Positions 409 to 13,420 of a DNA stretch of 14,673 nt are shown one piece after another (positions within the stretch are counted from its first letter, which is position 1; each line of letters begins with the position of its first letter). Source of the DNA: Gemmatimonadota bacterium (GTDB lineage: Bacteria; Gemmatimonadota; Gemmatimonadetes; Gemmatimonadales; GWC2-71-9); NCBI GenBank assembly GCA_036679645.1, contig JAZDCY010000050.1:1-14673 (forward strand), written 5' to 3'. The notes under the pieces are model-generated. The model was not told the origin of the DNA. It did no database searches and saw nothing but the letters and a program-made list of their open reading frames with translations. A program made the position numbers and the translations under genes.

Positions 409-754
409 CGAGGCTCCGGGTGCGTGGGAATGATGATATGCAGCCGCGGACGGGTGCTCGCAAGTGGTGATAGGCGTTGTGGTTATGCGACGGTGCAGGT
501 CGTGTCGGGATTTGGCGGTAATCGGTGGTGACGAAATGCGACGGGTGGTAGACGCCGAGACGCCCAGGCAGACGCGTAGGCGCCTATCCGCCCCACTACC
601 AACTACATCTCACCCGAGCGCGGAATCCCGCTCCCCTTCCGCGACGGATTGGTACCGGCATTGGGCACGTGGAGCCTTATCGTCAGCGTGCGGCACGGAG
701 AGAATTGCGAGGACCGCGTCGTTTTATGCCAGTGGCCGTCAACCGTATTGGGGT

Positions 755-838
755 GCCGGCGTGGCGAAACTGGTAGACGCAGATACTTCGCATGTATCTG
801 AGCGCAAGCTCGTGCCGGTTCGAATCCGGCCGCCGGTA
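755..838 (+). tRNA. Class II tRNA with tRNA-Leu body and Ala anticodon CGC (non-cognate); CCA not encoded
   Basis: Acceptor GCCGGCG(755-761)/CGCCGGT(831-837), A73=838; D-arm GCG-AAACTGGTAGA-CGC; anticodon arm GATAC-TTCGCAT-GTATC with CGC at 789-791; variable arm GAGC-GCAA-GCTC (800-811); T-arm GCCGG-TTCGAAT-CCGGC; followed by CCC. Confidence 0.92.
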
Positions 839-887
839 CCCGTCGCGCGATATCCGGAGCAATAGTTCTCAGAGAGCCAGATCGGTG

Positions 888-916
888 TTGACACTCCCGA
901 GGTCCATACCTAGGTT
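888..916 (+). promoter_or_regulatory. Sigma70-type promoter for the putative antisense sRNA 1
   Basis: TTGACA (888-893), 17-nt spacer, TAGGTT (911-916). Predicted +1 near A922/A923, where tRNA complementarity begins. Confidence 0.75.
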
Positions 917-922
917 GGCGGA

Positions 923-988
923 ACATGCGAAGTATCACGTAGCCGGTTTCGCTGTGCCAAGAGAGCCGGGTCTTCGGACCCGGCTTTC
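923..988 (+). ncRNA. Putative anti-tRNA small RNA 1, antisense to the 5' half of the tRNA at 755-838
   Basis: 923-936 ACATGCGAAGTATC is the exact reverse complement of 782-795. 942-958 pairs contiguously with 758-774 using five G:U pairs. It ends in a hairpin and has a paralog at 2881-2946. Confidence 0.75.
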
Positions 989-994
989 GACTTT
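961..994 (+). terminator. Stem-loop with C(UUCG)G tetraloop; likely 3' end of sRNA 1 and possibly terminator for the convergent ATPase gene
   Basis: GAGAGCCGGGTC-TTCG-GACCCGGCTTTC (12-bp stem, one G:U) then GACTTT; the U-tract is weak. Confidence 0.7.
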
Positions 995-1056
995 GCTCTA
1001 GACGCGTAGACGGATCGTTGGACAGAGGGGTAGTTGGACCACGAGGGTCGCCGTCA

Positions 1057-2613
1057 CTACCCACGCCGCCCGCGACGCTTCCCCCTAGCCGCATCACCCC
1101 ACCGAGCCAAGAACGTCGTGATGAACTCGTGCACCCGTGACCCTTCCACCGTGAGCGGCGCCAGTGCCATAGCGACGCTGAGCGCCAAGTGATAGCCCTC
1201 GGACCGCGACGCGACCGCCCGCTGATACGCCGGATGCGCATCGTTGACCCACACAGTCGATTCCACAAGCCGGCCCAGCTCGGGATCGTCAGGCCGGCTC
1301 TCGAACCGAATACTGAGCCCGTAGCGTGCCGGACGCCGCCGCCCTGTGCCAGGAAGCCCGGTACTCTTGGGCTCGACCGGCGCGCGGGACGCGGTCTCCG
1401 ACGCGGTTTCGGGCGCCGCTCGCTCCACCTCCGGCTCCGCGGTCTCCGCGCCTTTGGGCTCAACGGGGACCGGGGCCGCGTCTTCCGGAGCCGGAACGGC
1501 ACCCGGGCCGCCCCCGCCCAACGGCAACCGGCGCTGGCCGCCGGGCCGCCGCTCGACCAGTGCCGCGAGCAGGGGAAACTCGTCGGCCAGATCGGCTAAC
1601 AGGTTTCTGAGATCCCGCTCGATCGGACGCGTACGGCGCTGCCGCTTCCCGGCTGCCGCCTCCCGCACATCCCCCCACTCCGCGAGCTGCGCCGCCACCA
1701 CCTCCTGTAACGCTTTCCGGTAGACGAGGTACAACGCGCCGCGCTTGCCCGTCCGTATGAAATCCGCCTTGTTGAGCATGAGACTCTCCGCCAACGCCGG
1801 CACTTCGATCAGGCCGCCTATGTGTTCCGGCGCCGCCGGCGTCACGCCCAGCCAGTCCCAACCGCGCTTGATCACCTTGCCGAGCGTGCTGACCGCCACA
1901 CCGCGCTGTTCCTCGCTCAGTGGAACGCCGCTCCGCACCAGATAGCCGGACGCGGAAGGCTTCCGCTTGCGGGGCAGCTTCACCGCTACCGCGACCCGCT
2001 CCCGCACCGACGGGCGCCGACCGAGGAAGTGTCCGTTCACCGCGAAACGCACCCCATCCGGGTACGCCGTCTGGAGGATCGCGTCGAACGCGGGATCGAA
2101 CAGCGGTTCGTACTGCCGCCGCAGCGTGGCTTCGACAAACCCGTCGTCCAACAGCGGACTCAAGGCGTTGTTGAGCGCGAGGCATACCCCGGTTCCGTGC
2201 TGCACGACCCGACCAGGCGGGTCCACCCATTTCCAGGGCGCGCGATGCTTCGATTTCAGATGCCACCGCGTGGCGACGTGGGTTTTCCCGCGTCGCGTCT
2301 CGGTAACGACGTCGTCACACAGCAGCAACCCGAGTTTTATTCCCACTCCCGCGAACCCGATCCCGCTACCCCGCTGCTTCGACGTGGTGGCGAGATCGTG
2401 ATAGCGCCCCAGCTCACGTCGCGTCATTCCCCGGCCGTCATCTACCACGGTGAGCGTCGCGGCCGCGGGATCGGCAGAGAGGACGACCGCCGTCGCCCCC
2501 GAGTCCAACGAGTTGGCTACGATCTCCGTGAGAATCACTTCCTCGAGGGAGCCGGGATAGGCATCCCGCAAGTCCTCGAGCAGGTGCAACAGATCAACCC
2601 GCGTCTCACCCAC
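1057..2613 (-). CDS. GHKL (HATPase_c/Hsp90/MutL/MORC-like) ATP-binding protein, about 518 aa
   Basis: Bergerat-fold motifs EIVANSLDSGA, VVDDGRGM, GIGFAGVGIK and HGTGV. Probable start is GTG at 2613 (MGETRVDLLHLLEDL...) preceded by GGAGG; the ORF track extends to 2643. Pro/Ala/Glu-rich linker before the C-terminal domain; tandem TAG TGA stops. Confidence 0.85.
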   Translation of the reverse strand: MGETRVDLLHLLEDLRDAYPGSLEEVILTEIVANSLDSGATAVVLSADPAAATLTVVDDGRGMTRRELGRYHDLATTSKQRGSGIGFAGVGIKLGLLLCDDVVTETRRGKTHVATRWHLKSKHRAPWKWVDPPGRVVQHGTGVCLALNNALSPLLDDGFVEATLRRQYEPLFDPAFDAILQTAYPDGVRFAVNGHFLGRRPSVRERVAVAVKLPRKRKPSASGYLVRSGVPLSEEQRGVAVSTLGKVIKRGWDWLGVTPAAPEHIGGLIEVPALAESLMLNKADFIRTGKRGALYLVYRKALQEVVAAQLAEWGDVREAAAGKRQRRTRPIERDLRNLLADLADEFPLLAALVERRPGGQRRLPLGGGGPGAVPAPEDAAPVPVEPKGAETAEPEVERAAPETASETASRAPVEPKSTGLPGTGRRRPARYGLSIRFESRPDDPELGRLVESTVWVNDAHPAYQRAVASRSEGYHLALSVAMALAPLTVEGSRVHEFITTFLARWGDAARGKRRGRRG

Positions 2614-2710
2614 AGCGCCTCCGGCCACGCAAGCCCGCATCATCCCGTGAGAGGAGTAACATCACGTCTCTCGTGGTCTCTGTAAACGATATGGTGAACT
2701 ACGTCATCCC

Positions 2711-2753
2711 GGAATGGCGGGAAGGGCGGAAGGGCGGAAGGGCGGAAGGGCGG
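2711..2753 (+). repeat. Octamer tandem repeat (GGAAGGGC)x4 plus one degenerate copy
   Basis: Perfect copies at 2720-2751; GGAATGGC at 2711-2718. Confidence 0.9.
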
Positions 2754-2781
2754 TTCCAATGTAGGTACACTCCCCCAACCT

Positions 2782-2811
2782 GTGCAGGTTCGAATCCTGT
2801 CGTCGGCACCC
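2782..2811 (+). pseudogene. 3' remnant of a second class II-type tRNA (T-arm, 3' acceptor strand, A73, CCC)
   Basis: GT-GCAGG-TTCGAAT-CCTGT-CGTCGGC-A-CCC; 25/30 identical to 812-841 with a compensated T-stem change. No matching 5' half (GCCGRCG, D-arm, anticodon arm) in the upstream intergenic region. Confidence 0.8.
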
Positions 2812-2845
2812 ACCGCGCTACCCAGACCGTCGCGTTGATATGATG

Positions 2846-2874
2846 TTACCAAGCACCGAGCTGGAGCGTATCCT
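2846..2874 (+). promoter_or_regulatory. Sigma70-type promoter for the putative sRNA 2
   Basis: TTACCA (2846-2851), 17 nt, TATCCT (2869-2874), then 6 nt to A2881. The geometry is identical to the copy-1 promoter. Confidence 0.6.
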
Positions 2875-2880
2875 CTACGT

Positions 2881-2950
2881 ACTTGCCGGGTCTCCCCGTA
2901 GCCAGTTCCGCTCCGCAGGAAAGCCGGGTCTTATGACCCGGCTTTCCTGC
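2881..2950 (+). ncRNA. Putative anti-tRNA small RNA 2 (paralog of 923-988), displaying codon GCC
   Basis: ACTTGCCGGGTCTCCCCGTAGCCAGTTCCGCTCCGCAGGAAAGCCGGGTCTTATGACCCGGCTTTC; about 51 of 67 columns match sRNA 1 in a hand alignment. CCAGTTCCGC is antisense to a Leu-type D-arm (GCGGAACTGG). Confidence 0.7.
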
Positions 2951-2955
2951 TCTTT
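2915..2955 (+). terminator. 16-bp perfect hairpin; 3' end of sRNA 2 and probable terminator of the convergent LVIVD gene
   Basis: GCAGGAAAGCCGGGTC-TTAT-GACCCGGCTTTCCTGC followed by TCTTT; the LVIVD stop is at 3017. Confidence 0.8.
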
Positions 2956-3016
2956 ACCCACAGATACCGGTCTGCACCGAACCGGACCCCTGCCGGCACC
3001 GAGATCACATAGCTCG

Positions 3017-5025
3017 TCAGCGTACCGCCGCGAGCTCCCGCACGGCGCCCGCAAGCAACCGCACTTTATTGGCGTCACCCGACGCACTCACGTCGCCGCC
3101 GAGCGCGGTCGCCACTCTCGTCAGCGTCTCCCGCCGACCGGCACCCGAGGCATTCTCCGCACTGGTCAGCTCCTGCCGCAGCGACGAGATCCTGTTGGCC
3201 GGCAACCCGTTCGACCGCTCCAGCTGATCCACGTATGCACGCGCCAGCGCGAACGTGGCGGGCCAGACGAATTGCAGCTGTCCCTGCGCGTTCAGGTAGT
3301 CGAGCCGCACCGATTTGGCCGCGTCGATCTCGTTCTGCGAGAGATACTCGCTCGGCATCAGCTCGAAGATGTCCAGCCCGCGCGCGATCTCCGAACTCAC
3401 CATCACGCCATTGTACCAGTAGACGGACCAGCTTCCGCCCATCTGCATCTGGTCCGGGTCCACCGGGCCGCGATCGTGAAAGGCGATCTCCATCGGGTGC
3501 GCAGGGTCGGTCCAGTCGAACACCGAGATGCCGCCCTGATACCAGCCCTGTACCATCACATCGCGTCCCGGGATGGGAATCAGCGACCCGTTGTGCGCGA
3601 CGCAGTTTTCCTGCGGCGTCTGCGGTGCCGGCAGCTTGTAGTAGCTCCGGAACCGCATCTGCCGGTTCTCGAGCGTGAAGATGGCATCCGCCCCCCACTC
3701 CCTCGGATCGGTAGCGCGGCATTTTGGCTGGCCGCCTCCACCCCATTCGTCCGTGAAGAGGACCTTGCTGCCATCGTTGCTGAACGTCGCCGAGTGCCAA
3801 TAGGAGAAGTTCGAGTCGCTCACCGCGCCAATGCGCGTCGGGTTGGCGGGGTCGGAGATGTCCAGCAGCAGTCCGTAGCCACCGCACGCGCCGCCCGCCA
3901 GACCGATGGCCGGATACACGGTGATGTCGTGGCACTGCGTGGGACCGGGACGCGGGCCATCGGGGCGAGGCCGCCCGAACCGCCGCGCGATCATCTCCGG
4001 TAATGCCTCACGCAGTGCCGCGCTGTCGGCACCCGTGGCGGCGCCGCTGCCGCCCCGCGCGCTCACGATGCTGTCGAGCATGGGCCTCACGAACCGGCCC
4101 GGCAGTACCATCTGCTGACCTCGTATCTCAACGACGAAGGCGCCCCGTGCGCGCGCCTCTTCGATCGCGGCCATTCCCGCCGGCCCCGCGCCGTGCGTCG
4201 GGGGCGCCGCGAGATCCTGAAAGATCCGTGGAGAACTCACAATGGCCGCCTCTTCAGGATGCGCGAGCGGCACCCGGATCACCTCGATCCGGAACAGCGC
4301 GGTGTTGGGATTCTCGTCCAGTTGACCGCCCGAACACCCTGGCACCTCTTCGGCGGGGCGCACCGCGGCCGATCCGGAGACGTACACGTACACGTTCTCA
4401 TCGTCGTTCGGATCCTCTACGACCGTATGCGTGTGCGACCCACGGCATGTCTGCACGTTGGCGATGTACTGCGGGTTGCGAATGTCGCTGATATCGAAGA
4501 TCCGGATGCCGCGCAGTCGGTCATGGCTCACCGACTCGTGCACGCCATCTGTGCCACAGTCGAGCCGGCCGCCCAGTCCCTCACCCGAGATAACAGGAGA
4601 TTCCGGTAGACCGACACGTCGCTCTGCGATGCCGGACAGACATACCCCACCGCGAGGGACGGGTGGCTGGGATCCGAGATGTCCCACACCTGCATCCCGT
4701 TGTAGTTGCCCTGGATCGCGTAGTTGCCGGTAAAGGCGAGGTCGGAATTCGTGACGCCCACGAATGCTTCGGGCGGCGGCGTCTGCGACACGACCCGGAG
4801 GTTCCACACCGCTTCTTCCGCGTCGAATAGCCCGGGCCCTAGTCCGATGCGCGGGTCGGGACTGGGCGCCGCGGCCATTGGAGCGGGTGCGGGTGCCGGC
4901 GCAGCCGTTTCCGACGACGCGGTATACGACGAACAGCCTGGGAGAACCAAAAGTCCCGCAGCGAGCGGGAGCCAGAGACGGTTGGTAGCGGCCTGTGCGG
5001 CACGGAACAACGGGGTACCGATCAT
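3017..5025 (-). CDS. LVIVD-repeat beta-propeller lipoprotein, interrupted by a 1-nt frameshift near 4592 (sequencing error or pseudogene)
   Basis: The N-terminal frame (ATG 5025, AAGGA RBS, lipobox-like LVLPGC, NSDLAFTGNYAIQGNYNGMQVWDISDP...SQSDVSVYRNLL) joins the C-terminal frame (ISGEGLGGRLDCG...GIRIFDISD...CRGSHTHT...QCHDITV...WHSATF...ENCVAHNG) if one base is restored in CTG TT_ ATC. Confidence 0.85.
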
Positions 5026-5090: not shown

Positions 5091-5125
5091 AATCGCAAAT
5101 CGCCAATCGCAAACCGTCGATCGTC
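5091..5125 (+). repeat. Degenerate heptamer tandem repeat (AATCGCM) at the DUF305 stop
   Basis: aatcgca aatcgcc aatcgca aaccgtc gatcgtc. Confidence 0.6.
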
Positions 5126-6058: not shown

Positions 6059-9000
6059 CTACCGCCTGATCCCCGCCGCCACCCCCTCCGGCCCCTGGCG
6101 TAACCAGTGCGGCGGGACGAACGGCCGTTCCCGCGGCCACACCTCGTTGAGCGTCTCGCCCTCGTACAGCCGTCCACCCTTCATCACATACAAGATGCGC
6201 ACCGAATTCCGCAGATCCTCCAACGGATCGGCATCGAACACGAGGATGTCCGCCAGCTTGCCCTCCTCGATAGTGCCGAGGTCGGTCCCCAACCCAATGG
6301 CCTCCGCTCCATAGATCGTGGCGGCACGTAACACGTTGTGCGGTGACAGACCGCCCGACCCCAGGGCCCACAACTCCCAGTGGTAGCCCAGGCCCTGCAA
6401 CTGCCCGTGACTCCCCACGCCAATGCGCGCGCTGTCTTCCAACATCGCCCTCACGAACTCGGCGTGTCGCTGGAACACGTACTCCTCCGGCAGGAACCAG
6501 CCACCGCGGCCCGGATTGCCACCGCGGCGCCGGCTACGCGCATCGATGCTCTCTTCGGGTGCAAAGCGACGCAGCTTGGGATCGTCGTGCACGTTCTCGG
6601 TGGTGTAGAAGAAGTTCTCGCCGAACGGCCCGCCGTACGACACGAGCAGTGTCGGCGTGTTGGTGGTCTGGGAAGCCTTGAACAACTCGACCACGTCGTT
6701 GAATATCGGCGTTATCGGCAAGGCGTGCTCGATGCCGGGATAGCCGTCAAGCGCGTGCGTGATATTGAGCCTGAAGTCGAGCCCGCCTTCTGTCGTGGGC
6801 ATCAACTTCAATTCCTTCGCGGCCTGGATGATCCACTGCCGCTGCTGCCGGTTCCCCGACATGTACATCTTGAGCGTGTGCGTGTTGTAGTACTGGCTGT
6901 AACGGCGTAACACGGTCTTTGCGTGCTTGGCGTTGCGAATGTTCTCGGTCAGGAACACGCCCGGTCCCGTCGAGTAGATGCGCGGACCTATCATCCCCCC
7001 AATGTCGATACGATCCTGATAGCTCAATACATCTGTGGATCCGGTCTGTGGATCTCGCGTGGTCGTGACACCGAACGCCAACGTCGTGAGATACTGCCAC
7101 GCCTGCTCGCTGTGGATCTCCGGCACGAGCCACTGCGGGTGGTAGTGCGTGTCCACGAATCCCGGCGTGATGGTCTTGCCGGTGACGTCGATGATCTGGG
7201 CACCCTCGGGGACGTCGACCACTCCCGTGGTACCTACGCCCACGATGCGGTTGTCGGTAATGACGATGTCGGCGTTCTCGATAATCGAGTCTCCCTGCAT
7301 TGTGACCACGCGACCGCCGCGCAACACGATGCTGCCCCGCACGACCTCGCGTGGCAGCTCGACGTCGATCCGCATCTCCGCCGGCTTGTAGCCGGCGGTG
7401 TCCGCCGCCAGGCTGTCCATCCCGGACCGTACCGAATCTGCACGCGCACGAATGACCGCTGCCCGCGCCCGCAACTCGTCGGCAGCACGAATCAACGAGT
7501 CCGCCCGCATCTGCACCGAGTCCGCGGCCAACTGGCTGATACGTTGCGTCAACGAATCGGGGACCACCGCGGAGTCCGCCTTCTCGAGGCTATCCGCCAG
7601 CCCACGCGCGGTCTTGAGGCTGTCGAGCAGGTGCCGGGCCCGCAGCGCCTGTCCGACCGTCTCTCGGGCCGCCTGTTGGGTGCTGTCCTCGATTGCCTCG
7701 ACCCGCGAGAGATCATAGGTGAACAGGGCGTTCCCAATGGACCACCGGATCTGCGTTCCGTCGGCACTCCACGACGGGAACTCGCCGCCCACCTCGGTCA
7801 GTTGCCGCACCAGAACCGGCGCCGCACTCGGTCTGGCCACCGACACGGTGGGAACCGGTACCGTCACTGCCGGCATGTCGATCATGTAGATGTGATTGCC
7901 GACCTGTGCCAACGCCCTCCCACCGGTGGGAGACATCATGACCAATCCCGCCGGCGGTGGGCGCGGGCCCTGTTCGGCCGCTTCCGGGTCCATCACCGAC
8001 GGCTGCAACACCGGTTGGGGGAACACGCGACCCGGGACTACTTCCCACTGCTCCGGATGCGGGTTGCCAAAACCACCCGGTGGTCTGGCACCGCGCACGT
8101 TGAGATGGCGCTTTACATCCGTCCCGTCCCACCTGAACGAGACGAGACCCTCCGACCGGCTGTACGCGTAGATCCGGTTTGGCTGATCTACCCGGAAATG
8201 CGCCACGTCCCGACTGCCGGTGGGCGCGATCAACGTCACGTCGCCACCGCTCGCCGGTACCCAGACGAACTCACCACCCAACGGCCCAAAGAAGACGTCG
8301 GGGGCACTCGTCAGTTGGCGGGCGGCTCCCCGGCTGGCAACGATACGCTGTCCGTCCGGCGACCAGGCGAGGTCGTAGTAGAGCGCCGCCGCACTGGTGA
8401 GTTGCCGCGGGCTGGTCCCGTTGGCGCGCACGCTCATGATGTTCCCGCCCGCCGAGTCATCCCACGTTACGTACGCAAGCGTCGATCCGTCGGGTGACCA
8501 CACGGGGAAGTACTCGCCGATATCCGCGGTCGTGAGACGCCGCGGCTCGCCGCCATCGAGTTGCTGCACCCACAGACGGTCGAAAGCGGTGAACGCGATC
8601 TGCTCGCCGTTGGGTGACGCGACCGGATGCCGGATCTGCCGCGCGGTCACCGTCGCGGATGTATCCACGCGATACTCGAACTTCACTTCCGGCCCGATGG
8701 CGAGTTTGACCTCGGCCTCGAACGGGATGTTCGCAGCGGTGCCTCCGTCGATGGGCACGCGCCAGATCTGGCCGTCGTACGACACGACCACCGAACGTGA
8801 GTCGGGCATGAAGCTGTAGCCCGGCAGCACGTCGAGCGGGGCGCGCGATTCCATGTCGTCCCGTTGCACTGGATACGCCAACCACCGCTCGGCTCCGGTG
8901 TTCAGGTCGCGGATTCGCAGACCCGTCTCCGTGCCGTCACGCGTGCCGAACACCAGCCACCGGCCGTCCGGCGAGATGGCGGGCCGGAACCCCGACCCAT

Positions 9001-9721
9001 AGCGACCGGTCATGCGCGTGGACGTGCCGGTCTCTCGGTCGTACCGATAGAGCTGATACTGCGGGAAGATGGCGTTGTACTGCCAGTCACCGCTCCGCCG
9101 CGCATACCAGATGTGCTGCCCGTCGGGGCTGACCGCCGCACCCATCGTCTTGGCCGACGCCGGGCCGCTGATCACGATCTCCGCGCTCGACCGATGGACG
9201 TTGTAGATCCTGAGCTTGGCCGATCCGCCCAAGCCCCCGGTCCGACTCACCACGATGTGCTCACCGTCCGGCATCCATTCCGGCGAGTAGTACAGACTGG
9301 TGTTACCGCGTGTGACCTGCGTCGTGTCCGTGAAGTCCATACGCAGAGTCCACACGTTGTCGCCGCCGCTCCGGTCGGATACAAAGACGATCGTCTCGCC
9401 GTCGGGACTGAAACGTGGCTGCCCGTCATAGGCGAGGCCTTCGGTGATACGAGTCGCCGTCCCGCCCGCAATTGGTAGCGTGTAGAGATCACCCAACATG
9501 TCAAACACGATGGTCTGACCGTCGGGACTCACGTCCAATGACATCCACGTGCCGCGGGTCGCCGTGAAGTCGGCCGACCGCGCCGCCTCTAACGGCAACG
9601 GCTTTTTCTTGTCGCCACTACCCGGACCTGGCGGGCCCTGCGCGGACAGCGTCGTTACGGCCGCGCCCAACAGTGCGAGACCGGCAACGCTCGAGCGCAG
9701 CGCAATGTGCAGGCGAGTCAT
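6059..9721 (-). CDS. Secreted amidohydrolase family protein with N-terminal PD40/TolB-like beta-propellers (paralog B, about 1220 aa)
   Basis: Start ATG 9721 (MTRLHIALRSS..., GGAGG RBS, signal peptide) overlaps the upstream TGA (ATGA). GTWMSLDVSPDG and P.FSPDG repeats; TITPGFVDTHYH, GVTTTRDP, GPRIYSTG, GIEH, GTIEEGKLADILV. The ORF-track extension to 10165 is spurious. Confidence 0.93.
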   Translation of the reverse strand: MTRLHIALRSSVAGLALLGAAVTTLSAQGPPGPGSGDKKKPLPLEAARSADFTATRGTWMSLDVSPDGQTIVFDMLGDLYTLPIAGGTATRITEGLAYDGQPRFSPDGETIVFVSDRSGGDNVWTLRMDFTDTTQVTRGNTSLYYSPEWMPDGEHIVVSRTGGLGGSAKLRIYNVHRSSAEIVISGPASAKTMGAAVSPDGQHIWYARRSGDWQYNAIFPQYQLYRYDRETGTSTRMTGRYGSGFRPAISPDGRWLVFGTRDGTETGLRIRDLNTGAERWLAYPVQRDDMESRAPLDVLPGYSFMPDSRSVVVSYDGQIWRVPIDGGTAANIPFEAEVKLAIGPEVKFEYRVDTSATVTARQIRHPVASPNGEQIAFTAFDRLWVQQLDGGEPRRLTTADIGEYFPVWSPDGSTLAYVTWDDSAGGNIMSVRANGTSPRQLTSAAALYYDLAWSPDGQRIVASRGAARQLTSAPDVFFGPLGGEFVWVPASGGDVTLIAPTGSRDVAHFRVDQPNRIYAYSRSEGLVSFRWDGTDVKRHLNVRGARPPGGFGNPHPEQWEVVPGRVFPQPVLQPSVMDPEAAEQGPRPPPAGLVMMSPTGGRALAQVGNHIYMIDMPAVTVPVPTVSVARPSAAPVLVRQLTEVGGEFPSWSADGTQIRWSIGNALFTYDLSRVEAIEDSTQQAARETVGQALRARHLLDSLKTARGLADSLEKADSAVVPDSLTQRISQLAADSVQMRADSLIRAADELRARAAVIRARADSVRSGMDSLAADTAGYKPAEMRIDVELPREVVRGSIVLRGGRVVTMQGDSIIENADIVITDNRIVGVGTTGVVDVPEGAQIIDVTGKTITPGFVDTHYHPQWLVPEIHSEQAWQYLTTLAFGVTTTRDPQTGSTDVLSYQDRIDIGGMIGPRIYSTGPGVFLTENIRNAKHAKTVLRRYSQYYNTHTLKMYMSGNRQQRQWIIQAAKELKLMPTTEGGLDFRLNITHALDGYPGIEHALPITPIFNDVVELFKASQTTNTPTLLVSYGGPFGENFFYTTENVHDDPKLRRFAPEESIDARSRRRGGNPGRGGWFLPEEYVFQRHAEFVRAMLEDSARIGVGSHGQLQGLGYHWELWALGSGGLSPHNVLRAATIYGAEAIGLGTDLGTIEEGKLADILVFDADPLEDLRNSVRILYVMKGGRLYEGETLNEVWPRERPFVPPHWLRQGPEGVAAGIRR

Positions 9722-12700
9722 CGTGCACCTCCCCGAATTCCCGCTTCGACAACGGGAGCGACATGACGCCACGGCTCGTCCGGAGCTGCCTGCGCACGCG
9801 GCCAGATCTCGTCTAACGTATCTCCCTCGTACAGCCGTCCGTTCTTCATCACGTACCTTATGGTGTTGGTGTTGCGGATATCGTCCAACGGATTGGCATC
9901 GAGCACGATCAGATCGGCGAGCTTGCCCGACTCGATGGAACCCAGATCGTTGCCCAGCCCAATCGCCTGCGCGCCGAGTATCGTGGCCACACGGAGCGCG
10001 TCGTGATTTTCCATGCCGCCGCTCTGAATGGCCCACAACTCCCAGTGGTACCCGAGCCCCTGGAACTGTCCGTGACTGCCGACGCCGGCGCGCCCGCCGG
10101 CCTCGACGAGTCGCGCTATCCATGCCGCGTGCCTGCGGAAGGCATACTCGTCTTCGTGAAACCATCCGCCCGGACCGGGACCCGGATTTCGCCTTCGCAC
10201 CTTGGCATCGAACTCTTCACTCGGCATGAAATGGCGGATCTTCGCGTCGTTCACGATGTCTTCGTGCGTGTAGAAGTAGTTCTCCGCCCATGGCGCGCCG
10301 TACGACACGAGCAGCGTGGGCGAGTTCGTCGTTCCCGATGTCTTGAACAGCTCGATCACGTCCTCGTACGCCGGGATGATCGGCATCGTGTGCTCGACGC
10401 CGGGATACCCGTCCATCGCATGCGTCATGTTGAGACGATAGTCGAGCCCGCCTTCCGTGGTCGGCATCAACTCGAGTTCGCGCGCGGCCATGATCAACCA
10501 TTGTCGCCGTCGGCGATTGCCGGACATGTACATCTTGAACGTCTTGGTGTCGTAGTAGTCGCTGTAGCGACGCAGCACCCTACGCGCGTGGTCGAGATCC
10601 TCAATGCCCTCCGTCCAGAAGACGCCGGGACCGGTCGAGTAGACGCGGGGACCCGGCATGTATCCCGCCTCCACGCGGTCCGCGTACGACAACACGTCGG
10701 TCGTCGCCGTCTGCGGATCGCGGGTGGTGGTCACACCGTACGCCAAATTGGCGAGGTAGATCCACGGTCGCGTCCAGTGAAGGCCCCAGAGATTCCACAT
10801 GTGCGCGTGCGTATCGACAAAGCCCGGAACGATCGTCTTGCCGGTCACGTCGATCACCTGGGCATCGGCCGGCGCCGAACCGCGTGGGCCGACACTCGCT
10901 ATGCGATTGTTGGTAACCACGACGTCTGCGTTCTCGATCACCTCGGCACCGCGCATCGTCACGACCCGCGCGCCGCGCAGCACGACCGTGCCCTGCGGAA
11001 TATCGCGATTTGCCGTCACCTCAATGCGTCGTTCTTCCGGCCGGTATGTCGTGTCACCGGCAGCGGCGTCGAGTCGATAGGTCACGAACGCGTTCCCAAT
11101 AGACCAGTGCAGCGTGCGTCCGTCCCCGCCCCAGGCGGCGAACTCGCCGCCGATGTCGGTGAGCTTGCGGACCGGCATCGACGCGCTGTCCGGTTTCGTC
11201 ACCATCACCACCGGCACGCCGCCGATCTGCGGCACGGTAACGACGTATACGTCGTTGTTGACCTGCGCCAGCGCGAGGTCGCCTTGCGGCGCCATCATCA
11301 CCAAATCCGCAGGGCGGTGCGGGATGTTCGGCTCGCGACTGTAGTCGCGCGGCATGAGCAGGTCGGAAGTGGGCGACACCTCCCACGCTGCCGGCGTGAT
11401 CGGCAGCCGCCACGTGACCTTCAGGTGTTGTTTGAGATCGGTATTGTCCCACCGGGTCGAGACCAGCGCCACTGGTGGCGGCTGTCCCGGCTGGCGCGGC
11501 CCGCTGGACGGGAGGCGTCCGTAGGAGTAGATGCGGTCGGGGTCGTTCGTGAAGTGAGGGCGAGAGCGGCCGGCCGTCGGGCCGATCACCGTGACGGCGC
11601 CGCCACGTGCGGGAACCCAAACAAACTCCGAGCCTAATCCACTAAAGACGAACGGATCGACGGCCTCCTGCAGGTCCCGTGAGGACGCCCGTATCGCCAC
11701 GATGCGGCCGCCGTCGGGCGACCAGGCGAGCTGCTGGTAGTACGCCGACACCCGGGTGAGCTGTCGCACCCGGCCGCCCGATGCCGAAACCCGCATGATA
11801 TGACCGATCGAATCGTTCCACGTCACGAAGGCAACGTCCTCGCCATCTGGCGACCAGGTCGGGTAATACTCGCCGGTGTTCTGCCCGGTGAGCCGGCTCG
11901 GTGTCCCGTCGGGCAGGTTCATAACGTACAACCGATCGAGCGCGGTGAACGCGACCTGCGAGCCGTCGGGTGACGGCACCGCATCGCGAATCTGCTTCAC
12001 GGTGAAGGTGGCACCGTCGTCCACCGGATAGTCGAACCTCACTTCCGGTCCCACCGCAACTTCGGCGTTGACCGTGAAAGGGATTTTGGTTGGGTCGGTG
12101 CCGTCTATCGGCACATTCCAGATCTCACCGCCATAAGAGATGACGATGGACCGGGAATCTGGCGTGAACGAGTAGCCCGGCAACACGTCCATGTTGGCAA
12201 TGGATTCCTGGTCGTCCCGCTGAATGGGGAACGCGAGCCAGCGCTCCTCGCCCGTCGCGAGTTCGCGAATACGCAAACCCGTTTCGGCGTCATGGCGTGA
12301 GCCGTAGGCCAGCCATGTGCCATCAGGCGAGAGCGCCGGCCGGAACGCCGAACCGTAACGTGAACTCATCGTCGTCCGGGTGGCCGCCTCGCGGTCGTAC
12401 ACCGCGAGTTGATACTGCGGCATGACGGCGTTGTACTGCCACGCACCAGACCGCTGCGCAAACCAGACGTAACGTCCGTCGGCCCCAAAGGCCGGGCCGA
12501 GCATGCGAAGACGACCCGGACCGCCCGCCATCTCGAGGCCGCGGCCGCCGTCAACGTGGTAGAGCCACAGCTTCTCGAGACCGAGCCGCGTGCGTTTTGG
12601 CACTACGACGTAGTTGCCATCAGGCGTCCATTCGGGAGAGAGGTACGAAGCGCCATCGCCGGTGGTAAGCGGCGCCGGATTCCCTCCATCGGCATCGATC

Positions 12701-13053
12701 AGCCACACGTTGTCGTCGCCGCTCCGGTCGGAGACGAACGCGATGCGCGTGCCGTCACGACTGAAGCGTGGTCCCAGGTCGTGGGCAATGCCGTGCGTCA
12801 ATCGCGTGGCCGTGCCACCAGCGATCGGGATCGTGTACAGATCACCGAGCAGGTCGAACACGATGGTCTGCCCATCGGGACTCACGTCCAGGGAAATCCA
12901 CGTCCCTCGAGTCGCAGTGAACCGCGCCCAACGGGCCGGCTCGAGAGGCAGGCCCTGATCGGCTTCCTCCTGGCTCCAGGCAACCTGTGGGAGGGAAATG
13001 GCAAACAGAGGAAGTGCGGCGAGCAACAGACCGCAGCGTCGAGACAACTGCAT
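9718..13053 (-). CDS. Secreted amidohydrolase family protein with N-terminal PD40/TolB-like beta-propellers (paralog A, about 1111 aa)
   Basis: Start ATG 13053 (MQLSRRCGLLLAALPLFA..., GGAG RBS, signal peptide). GTWISLDVSPDG repeats; TIVPGFVDTHAH, GVTTTRDP, GVEH, GSIESGKLADLIVLDANPL. The ORF-track extension to 13941 is antisense to the ABC gene. Confidence 0.93.
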   Translation of the reverse strand: MQLSRRCGLLLAALPLFAISLPQVAWSQEEADQGLPLEPARWARFTATRGTWISLDVSPDGQTIVFDLLGDLYTIPIAGGTATRLTHGIAHDLGPRFSRDGTRIAFVSDRSGDDNVWLIDADGGNPAPLTTGDGASYLSPEWTPDGNYVVVPKRTRLGLEKLWLYHVDGGRGLEMAGGPGRLRMLGPAFGADGRYVWFAQRSGAWQYNAVMPQYQLAVYDREAATRTTMSSRYGSAFRPALSPDGTWLAYGSRHDAETGLRIRELATGEERWLAFPIQRDDQESIANMDVLPGYSFTPDSRSIVISYGGEIWNVPIDGTDPTKIPFTVNAEVAVGPEVRFDYPVDDGATFTVKQIRDAVPSPDGSQVAFTALDRLYVMNLPDGTPSRLTGQNTGEYYPTWSPDGEDVAFVTWNDSIGHIMRVSASGGRVRQLTRVSAYYQQLAWSPDGGRIVAIRASSRDLQEAVDPFVFSGLGSEFVWVPARGGAVTVIGPTAGRSRPHFTNDPDRIYSYGRLPSSGPRQPGQPPPVALVSTRWDNTDLKQHLKVTWRLPITPAAWEVSPTSDLLMPRDYSREPNIPHRPADLVMMAPQGDLALAQVNNDVYVVTVPQIGGVPVVMVTKPDSASMPVRKLTDIGGEFAAWGGDGRTLHWSIGNAFVTYRLDAAAGDTTYRPEERRIEVTANRDIPQGTVVLRGARVVTMRGAEVIENADVVVTNNRIASVGPRGSAPADAQVIDVTGKTIVPGFVDTHAHMWNLWGLHWTRPWIYLANLAYGVTTTRDPQTATTDVLSYADRVEAGYMPGPRVYSTGPGVFWTEGIEDLDHARRVLRRYSDYYDTKTFKMYMSGNRRRRQWLIMAARELELMPTTEGGLDYRLNMTHAMDGYPGVEHTMPIIPAYEDVIELFKTSGTTNSPTLLVSYGAPWAENYFYTHEDIVNDAKIRHFMPSEEFDAKVRRRNPGPGPGGWFHEDEYAFRRHAAWIARLVEAGGRAGVGSHGQFQGLGYHWELWAIQSGGMENHDALRVATILGAQAIGLGNDLGSIESGKLADLIVLDANPLDDIRNTNTIRYVMKNGRLYEGDTLDEIWPRAQAAPDEPWRHVAPVVEAGIRGGAR

Positions 13054-13332
13054 GGCAAAACTCCGCAGCGTGTGGGTACCGGATTGGGCTTTCGAATTGA
13101 AACGTGGGCCTACGGGTGGCGACAACCGACAGTCAGGATCGTGCATTGTGAACGCGCGAGGCCAATATGTGGATGGTGCCGTCAGCATGGGCAGAAAGAT
13201 GCATTGGGGGGCGGATGGTCGCGAGGTGCCGTCTTGGATTCCCCGAAGACACCGGAAAGTTCCTCCAGATCCGCATCTGGGACTCAGGAGTCTGAGAACC
13301 GAGTGTCCCTGCCAATCCCGGCTACCGACAAC

Positions 13333-13375
13333 TGAACGCCTGAGCGCCTGAGCGCCTGAGCGTCTGAGCGTCTGA
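13333..13375 (+). repeat. Octamer tandem repeat (TGAGCGYC) x5 in the divergent intergenic region
   Basis: tgaacgcc tgagcgcc tgagcgcc tgagcgtc tgagcgtc tga. Confidence 0.85.
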
Positions 13376-13420
13376 CAGGGTACGCGAGTAACCTGGCAAC
13401 CGTTTATCTTCCCTCCTCCA

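Follow-up and report, generated by a model that had tools for sequence, protein, structure and literature searches.

An orphan anti-tRNA RNA gene in Gemmatimonadota and the candidate RNA-only toxin-antitoxin family to which it belongs

The locus and its features

The window, a 14,673-nt stretch of contig JAZDCY010000050.1 in the Gemmatimonadota assembly GCA_036679645.1, carries two related RNA modules on its forward strand (Table 1). Module 1 is intact and includes a leader that repeats, in weaker form, the sRNA's complementarity to the 5' half of the tRNA, a tRNA (tRNA 1), and a small RNA (sRNA 1) that has a 14-nt exact complement to tRNA 1 and a covariance-model match of 56.5 bits. Predicted cofolding gives -27.3 kcal/mol for sRNA 1 with tRNA 1, as against -3.3 to -9.0 kcal/mol with the other four tRNAs of this type in the genome. 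The second locus holds the sRNA 2 gene (2846-2955), a promoter followed by an RNA of about 75 nt in the order 5' seed, small hairpin, and terminator. Directly upstream of it lies a 29-nt tRNA remnant that is absent from the earlier note on this DNA.

Table 1. Positions of the RNA modules and the intervening gene in the window
Feature	Position	Strand	Basis
Module 1 -10 box (678-683, predicted) and 5' leader	678-754	+	Fold and shuffle tests
tRNA 1: leucine body, Ala anticodon CGC (789-791), A73, no G3:U70; predicted toxin	755-838	+	ARAGORN, Rfam, identity elements
Module 1 promoter (888-916) and sRNA 1 (923-~995), cognate antisense of tRNA 1	888-995	+	
GHKL-type ATPase gene between the two modules	1057-2643	-	Pfam HATPase_c_3
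8-nt GGCGGAAG repeat tract, in the stretch lacking the leader and the 5' half of the tRNA	2720-2753	+	BLAST matches on many contigs
3' remnant of lost partner tRNA: T arm, acceptor 3' strand, A73-C-C	2782-2810	+	81% alike to 3' end of tRNA 1
sRNA 2 promoter, predicted sigma-70-type: -35 TTACCA, 17 nt, -10 TATCCT	2846-2874	+	Sequence and family conservation
sRNA 2 5' seed, complementary to tRNA positions ~26-40, opposite anticodon GGC or GGT	2881-2895	+	Sequence comparison
sRNA 2 internal hairpin region, complementary to D arm and 5' acceptor strand	2897-2915	+	Alignment, duplex drawings
sRNA 2 terminator-like hairpin, 16 bp, short U tail	2915-2955	+	Fold, covariation

The two sRNAs share one plan, as the earlier note had proposed. 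From the seed start (923 and 2881) to the end of the common GGCTTTC (988 and 2946) each measures 66 nt; the -35 elements (888 and 2846) are followed by a 17-nt spacer and a -10 element (911 and 2869) ending 6 nt before the seed; and alignment bears out the claimed common core and hairpin. Across the 4.05 Mb of the genome, the core CGTAGCCRGTTYCGCT occurs at these two sites only; the hairpin core is present at one further site besides them. Across the family of related modules, TAnnnT stands 10-20 nt upstream of the seed in 79 of 108, and T, T, and G occur 23-21 nt further upstream in 71, 56, and 57 of these 79. A simple consensus scan called neither promoter nor terminator.

By sequence, the sRNA 2 seed is complementary to the anticodon loop and the 5' anticodon stem. 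The internal stem, which has one mismatch in this copy, is paired in 87% of cells across 80 relatives, with two-sided changes in six of seven pairs; the helix was named from the same sequences in which the pairs were counted. For the inner hairpin, a crude test against shuffled sequences gave a weak result (z<-2 in 17 of 107 modules), and the pair count in the alignment favours the helix. In the terminator, 11 of 12 consensus pairs covary across the family, and the 16-bp terminator stem drives the fold z-score of -7.2 for sRNA 2. When sRNA 2 is folded alone, the seed is predicted to fold back on itself, so sRNA 2 may be decaying.

Searched with a covariance model of 80 related sRNAs, all from other genomes, the GCA_036679645.1 genome has six copies at E<1e-4 (the next best match has an E of 0.06). 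sRNA 2 has the highest score (65.7 bits), and each of the remaining five copies lies behind an intact leucine-body tRNA, so that the genome holds five intact modules and the orphan sRNA 2. The four intact modules besides module 1 have the anticodons GGC (twice) and GAC (twice). For each of the five tRNAs the best predicted cofold is with its own sRNA (-15.2 to -27.3 kcal/mol). The genome also retains the full set of five ordinary Leu tRNAs along with ordinary Ala and Val tRNAs. Searches of Rfam with the window and six related loci returned tRNA only, and no family for the sRNA. Separately, the locus G000:C7:130360-130443 (-) holds a tRNA body resembling Leu(CAA) whose anticodon loop is shortened and which has no sRNA.

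The earlier note predicted from the seed a Leu-body tRNA with anticodon GGC beside sRNA 2. Only the 3' end of such a tRNA is left there, and the assembled genome has no matching arm: no site fitting the 15-nt seed lies inside any tRNA of the host assembly. The DNA 5' of the remnant is unrelated sequence and the dispersed 8-nt repeat. One contig from the source run extends unbroken and without differences over 2724-3300, so an assembly gap does not account for the truncation; the join across the GGCGGAAG repeat itself rests on the window's assembly. As the genome is 92.7% complete, the partner tRNA could be unassembled. When the source run was searched with the predicted partner, the sole high-depth contig among the 8 of 17 matches listed was that of tRNA 1, and a gap in such coverage carries no weight. 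In a congener, the genes that flank 465-3016 are adjacent and the stretch between them is missing; the same congener has a related module 4 kb away, in which the sRNA is intact and the tRNA is broken by two insertions. sRNA 2 is very probably the antisense RNA of a lost family tRNA.

The GHKL ATPase is a passenger on the same inserted stretch and is not obligatory. It was considered as fixed cargo of the module and rejected, as an sRNA lies within 1.5 kb of such a gene in just 3 of 16 loci, the window included. Of 150 family genomes, 15 have the gene, and 14 of these 15 are sRNA-positive compared with 52 of the 150 overall, counts in which kin are not independent. In L359 and L360, as in the window, it is flanked on both sides by sRNAs. 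PADLOC gave no match to this ATPase at 1e-8. Elsewhere in the window are short tandem intergenic repeats (a CGCCTGAG run and an AATCGCA-like run, at 13337-13378 and 5093-5113) and two tandem paralogous long genes (6059-9720 and 9718-13054, both on the reverse strand) that are 71-82% alike in stretches and appear by eye to encode propeller-like repeats and an amidohydrolase-like tail.

The module family and the match of seed to anticodon

Members of the family combine a tRNA that has a leucine body but an anticodon for another amino acid with an antisense RNA downstream of it, and the family is almost confined to Gemmatimonadota. A pattern for a Leu-body tRNA with a pyrimidine at position 36, applied to species genomes, matched at least 119 loci, and 113 of those listed carry Gemmatimonadota titles. 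With relatives' loci added, 134 distinct tRNA calls were parsed, of which 122 non-Leu rows (four non-family members left in) and eight Leu-anticodon controls with enough downstream DNA were analysed. One module (L010, in the unpublished genome G016) is included in the seed-score, leader, and promoter and body counts and in the covariance model; it is left out of the anticodon-blind set, the 120-sRNA set, the 107-module counts, the ATPase loci, and the tree, and no conclusion depends on it.

The tRNA bodies are those of leucine tRNAs. A73 is found in 106 of 108, A14-A15 with U48 in 103 of 108, and G3:U70 in 0 of 107, on an acceptor branch of 7 acceptor and 5 T-stem base pairs. The leucine identity set of A73, A15:U48, G18G19, A20a, and the D/T-loop contacts is present by sequence; the D loop, U48, T loop, and arm length were part of the search pattern, which makes their recovery partly circular, and A73, A15, and the 3:70 pair were not. 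In Escherichia coli these elements are the leucine determinants, and the anticodon is not one of them (PMC9976931). Since A73, A15:U48, G18G19, and the long arm are kept and G3:U70 is absent, the family tRNAs are presumed to be charged by LeuRS and would misread their codons as leucine. AlaRS should not charge the Ala members, because they lack G3:U70, whereas Val-anticodon members may be charged correctly in part, because ValRS reads A35, C36, and A73. C33 is present in 34 of the 108, and in all seven metagenome matches with the sRNA 2 seed, and may weaken decoding. Most family tRNAs lack an encoded CCA, as do most of the host's other tRNAs. The four commonest anticodons read GCG, GTG, GCC, and GTC, which rank 1, 7, 4, and 11 in codon usage in the host genome. 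At positions 32-38, nearly all family anticodons end in C, and AGC anticodons (A34) occur.

The leader of about 75 nt, which lies behind its own -10-like box, has a fold with z<-2 in 62 of 107 modules and also in one of eight Leu controls; predicted pairing of the anticodon is 0.51 with the leader and 0.38 with a shuffled leader. The antisense leader suggests that the tRNA precursor may be inactive. Some leaders keep a seed for an anticodon other than that of their own tRNA (L134, C59), possibly a record of ancestral specificity.

The seed and the anticodon vary together. With a score for a 12-nt antisense to tRNA positions 27-38, sought downstream of the tRNA, 103 of 122 cognate pairs reach the cut-off of at least 10.5 of 12, as do 2.8% of non-cognate pairs and none of the eight true Leu tRNA controls. 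When the anticodon is masked in the 105 modules that can be anchored (17 more cannot), the facing triplet is a Watson-Crick match in 100, a wobble match in 3, and a mismatch in 2. GGT stands opposite a GCC seed, with G-U pairs, in 3 of 4 cases. A tree made without arm or seed, from a short alignment and with rough support, places 50 anticodon changes among 107 modules, and so the match of seed to anticodon appears to have been re-established many times; because the modules are related, the counts overstate independence. In L253, L259, L273, and L309 a second sRNA with another seed stands directly behind a complete module, an arrangement that resembles an immunity array.

The anticodons of the 107 modules are Ala (50), Val (39), Asp (6), Thr (5), Glu (5), and Gly (2), and those of the anticodon-blind set of 68 are Ala (36), Val (26), Asp (3), Thr (2), and Gly (1). 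A family of specificity variants exists, as the earlier note supposed, but it is not built around alanine only: about half are Ala and more than a third Val, and one Ser (GGA) pair belongs to the family as well. The strict tRNA pattern occurs in 26 of 401 phylum genomes, all within two families, and non-Leu anticodons ending in a purine, sought in the same 401 genomes with A37, occur in none. With a looser pattern, purine-ending anticodons occur in one of 301 family genomes, the GGA module. The sRNA model matches 53 of 151 family genomes with up to 14 copies, of which the weakest may be false, and the modules are patchy, multi-copy, and non-syntenic. Outside the phylum, such a pair occurs in one of 301 genomes of a lineage labelled Acidobacteriota. 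In this pair (L147 / L345, titled Pyrinomonadaceae), a divergent Leu-body tRNA with a CCC anticodon has a cognate antisense RNA and a near-consensus promoter; no antisense leader is seen in this pair. A plasmid search for modules gave no match. Among viral contigs, one phage bears a tRNA array (L028, L344) in which Leu-like bodies carry non-Leu anticodons and no antisense RNA accompanies them. Of 129 flanking ORFs, 10 are of toxin-antitoxin, nuclease, or transposase types (ParE, HicB, two MNT, three Uma2, HNH, DUF4143-AAA, and IS200). The Pfam matches listed for these 129 ORFs include no integrase, no conserved protein partner, no cas family, and no ProRS; there is one ArgRS.

The sRNA 2 seed itself was used to search metagenomes for its partner. 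The whole predicted tRNA, sought exactly, gave no matches; the natural partners have a D arm with GCGAAA rather than the GCGGAA of that prediction. A search for a T arm followed by the exact sRNA 2 seed, with the anticodon left free, did find them: all seven matches have the predicted arm, four with GGC (Ala) and three with GGT (Thr). Of the GGC matches, three are near-identical (GAGAC-TC-GGC-AA-GTCTC) and one has GGGAC; two of the GGT matches are identical to each other. The seed of sRNA 2 is thus found unchanged behind matching-arm tRNAs in L034, L088, and L337-L343, where L034 is the same module as one of the GGC matches and L088 has GGT, and also in another orphan sRNA (L228). Homologs of sRNA 2 accordingly do not adjoin unrelated anticodons. 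The expected arm, GAGAC-YY-GGC-AA-GTCTC, adjoins the seed in L337, L340, and L341, and what the seed predicts is GGY rather than GGC alone. Where the seed accompanies an intact tRNA, two independent lineages have GGC (Ala) and three GGT (Thr, by G-U wobble). On these findings the lost tRNA decoded either Ala (GCC/GCU) or Thr (ACC/ACU) codons, with about equal probability. Predicted cofolds of sRNA 2 reach -20.1 kcal/mol with the L034 tRNA, -15.0 with that of L088, and -14.5 with C59, a GGC tRNA of its own genome, compared with -5.2 to -6.7 for the other four genome tRNAs; C59 reaches -18.9 kcal/mol with its own sRNA.

Loss of the tRNA, proposed mechanism, and rival explanations

In these modules the tRNA is lost far more often than the sRNA. 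Outside the host genome and G016, the best 120 of 175 sRNA matches (37 genomes) include 68 with an intact tRNA, 47 without, and 5 at contig edges. A script classed the 47 as 17 with a 3' remnant like that of sRNA 2 (three of them also with T-loop insertions, and one doubtful), 7 interrupted, 1 retaining just the 5' half, 4 additional sRNAs downstream of a complete module, and 18 with no trace called. Conversely, an sRNA is missing behind only 2 of the 118 intact tRNAs of the family, if eight bulged seeds accepted by eye are counted as present. Because the covariance model learned from sRNAs linked to tRNAs, the count of orphans is if anything too low. One-sided loss suggests the trace expected of a costly toxin and a cheap antidote. 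The two sRNA-less tRNAs (CGC and CAC) lie on one contig (L071) and are the sole such cases. In ten broken tRNAs from several genera (L225, L231, L241, L266, L290, L308, L319, L322, L328, and L330) an insertion of about 45-55 nt occupies the same T-loop spot, and most of these end in a GCAA-like motif; the insertion resembles a small repeat element aimed at this position, and an intron of a new type is possible.

Judged from sequence, the loci have a tandem order of leader, tRNA, promoter, antisense RNA, and terminator, together with covariation of seed and anticodon, specificity switching, and one-sided loss of the tRNA. These features point to an RNA-only toxin-antitoxin family that probably acts by mistranslation, with the tRNA as toxin and the antisense RNA as antitoxin. 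Depending on its anticodon, the toxin tRNA would cause Ala, Val, Asp, Thr, Glu, or Gly codons to be decoded as leucine, and the misreading of frequent codons would poison the cell. The sRNA is in effect an inverted copy of tRNA positions ~3-40, with a free 5' seed, a 7-bp hairpin that holds the D-arm complement, and the terminator; its seed would pair with the anticodon loop first, and about 35 bp would then be zipped through the D arm, unfolding the tRNA. The primary tRNA transcript would be born inactive, its leader (and, on read-through, its trailer) pairing with the 5' half, just as the toxin transcript of hok/sok is born inactive. This stable inactive store would be released once sRNA synthesis stops. 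At the sRNA 2 locus, the toxin tRNA would have been deleted and the antidote left as an orphan, which may persist because it is predicted to pair with C59, the genome's other GGC tRNA.

Anticodon-swapped tRNAs kill E. coli (PMC5389517), and yeast Leu-tRNA variants with CGC, AGC, or UGC slow growth to 54, 35, and 67%, respectively; the growth defect with GGC is not significant (PMC11028032). A broader proposal, slightly more likely than not, is that these are undescribed, widespread addiction modules, with a working tRNA toxin that recodes common codons as leucine and a programmable anti-tRNA RNA, in a race through anticodon space. Modules would change anticodon to escape resident antitoxins, and orphan sRNAs would immunise against incoming or resident tRNA toxins.

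The modules might instead benefit the host, the sRNA restraining a mistranslating tRNA until stress or a phage-driven shut-off of transcription, with dormancy, abortive infection, or proteome variation rather than selfish addiction as the outcome. Such a role is unlikely on present evidence. Its case draws on the 10 of 129 flanking ORFs listed above, on the lack of plasmid matches and the single phage with such tRNAs but no antisense RNA, and on amino-acid swaps that are mostly mild and hydrophobic (Ala or Val to Leu). Yet the neighbours are mostly unrelated genes, the figure of 10 in 129 is a raw count, and frequent tRNA inactivation, up to 14 sRNA copies per genome, and fast specificity switching fit selfish spread better. 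Host benefit is also compatible with the toxin-antitoxin reading and does not exclude it. It is distinctly improbable that mistranslation plays no part, either because an uncharged or poorly charged tRNA stalls ribosomes or ties up LeuRS, or because a matched synthetase makes the tRNA a switchable extra decoder. Most members lack an encoded CCA and C33 is common, some allo-tRNAs killed cells without suppressing (PMC5389517), and ValRS and ThrRS read anticodon bases; however, the host's own tRNAs mostly lack an encoded CCA too, the absence of G3:U70 in all 107 should keep AlaRS from charging the Ala members, and a harmless decoder needs neither a matched antisense RNA nor one-sided loss.

Explanations at the level of DNA fare worse. 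A full tRNA and a 3' tRNA fragment bracket a stretch that is missing between the same flanking genes in the congener, as if the fragment were the displaced end of a tRNA-integrated island and the sRNA a recombination repeat or cis trailer. An integrative island was rejected because the att-like ends have 81% identity rather than being identical and 465-3016 has no integrase, nor is one among the matches listed for the 129 neighbours. The use of G-U pairs (GGT opposite GCC) is moreover a trait of RNA, and promoter and terminator are conserved and retained when the tRNA is gone, which leaves a DNA-level origin very improbable. The least credible reading, a dispersed terminator repeat with a chance seed match, was named in the earlier note as a threat to its own proposal. 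The failure of the consensus scan to call a promoter speaks for it, and it is refuted by the masked-anticodon pairing, by the census of six genome copies, five of them behind intact family tRNAs, and by the anticodon-blind prediction that held in seven of seven cases.

If the toxin-antitoxin reading is right, this would be the first case in nature of a tRNA gene acting as a toxin, and of a dedicated RNA that silences a tRNA by base-pairing to the anticodon. Such a system would offer a reason for bacterial tRNAs whose body and anticodon disagree, a question raised by allo-tRNAs and tRNA-ProX, and would imply a hidden, switchable ambiguity of the genetic code in a common uncultured lineage of soil and sediment. 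The tRNA genes of these modules pass in annotation as ordinary Ala or Val tRNAs. It would also supply an all-RNA module of about 350 nt with swappable specificity for the control of suppressor tRNAs.

Relation to known systems

In type VIII toxin-antitoxin systems, both parts are non-coding RNAs encoded at one locus and the antitoxin is specifically complementary to its own toxin. Here both parts, tRNA and sRNA, are RNAs at one locus, and the complementarity is present by sequence and predicted pairing. Among known members, SdsR is masked by antisense binding and CreT acts on translation (PMC8610362, PMC12737573). SdsR represses mRNAs, and the SdsR/RyeA genes overlap on opposite strands, whereas the genes here are in tandem on the same strand. 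The toxin CreT ties up a rare tRNA of its host, and CreA, a crRNA-like antitoxin, needs Cascade within a CRISPR-cas locus; here the predicted toxin is the tRNA itself, and no cas family is among the matches listed for the 129 nearest ORFs. Unlike the antitoxins of SdsR/RyeA and CreTA, the one described here is a tandem, same-strand inverted copy aimed at the toxin's anticodon. Type I systems such as hok/sok likewise have an antisense antitoxin and many specificity variants, but their toxin is a peptide made from an mRNA rather than, as predicted here, a tRNA (PMC8610362).

The tRNA half of the module also has relatives. In the allo-tRNAs of Mukai et al. (PMC5389517), as here, body and anticodon disagree and the anticodons are many; their expression can kill E. 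coli, and they often lie near toxin-antitoxin genes. They have 8/4 or 9/3 folds, G73 or U73, and Ser or Ala identity, in contrast to the 7/5 Leu bodies with A73 found here. The words "antisense" and "complementary" are absent from the main text of that paper, and irregular 7/5 tRNAs in its supplements may bear on novelty. The tRNA-ProX/ProRSx pairs of Streptomyces are natural tRNAs encoded to mistranslate, placing Pro at Ala, Asn, and Thr codons, and they share with the present family an odd position 33 and A34 anticodons (here AGC); they have a Pro body and their own synthetase, in contrast to a Leu body and no ProRS among the matches listed for the 129 neighbours (PMC11415595). In that review, "antisense" occurs 0 times and no antisense partner is reported. 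In E. coli, tRNA-LysT and tRNA-ArgU are a case in which an RNA sequesters a tRNA by base pairing (bioRxiv 10.64898/2026.09.02.748885), but these are two ordinary tRNAs whose T and acceptor arms pair at about -8.6 kcal/mol, without the dedicated, covarying antisense gene of the modules here.

A search of the full-text literature, chiefly outside subscription journals, found no pair of tRNA toxin and antisense RNA. sRNA 2 and its family are real, look functional, and are undescribed in the literature searched. Type VIII is a label for a class of molecules, and neither the toxin mechanism nor the antitoxin target was found in that literature. The modules are predicted to work like type I and type VIII toxin-antitoxin systems and are distinct from SdsR/RyeA, CreTA, allo-tRNAs, and tRNA-ProX.
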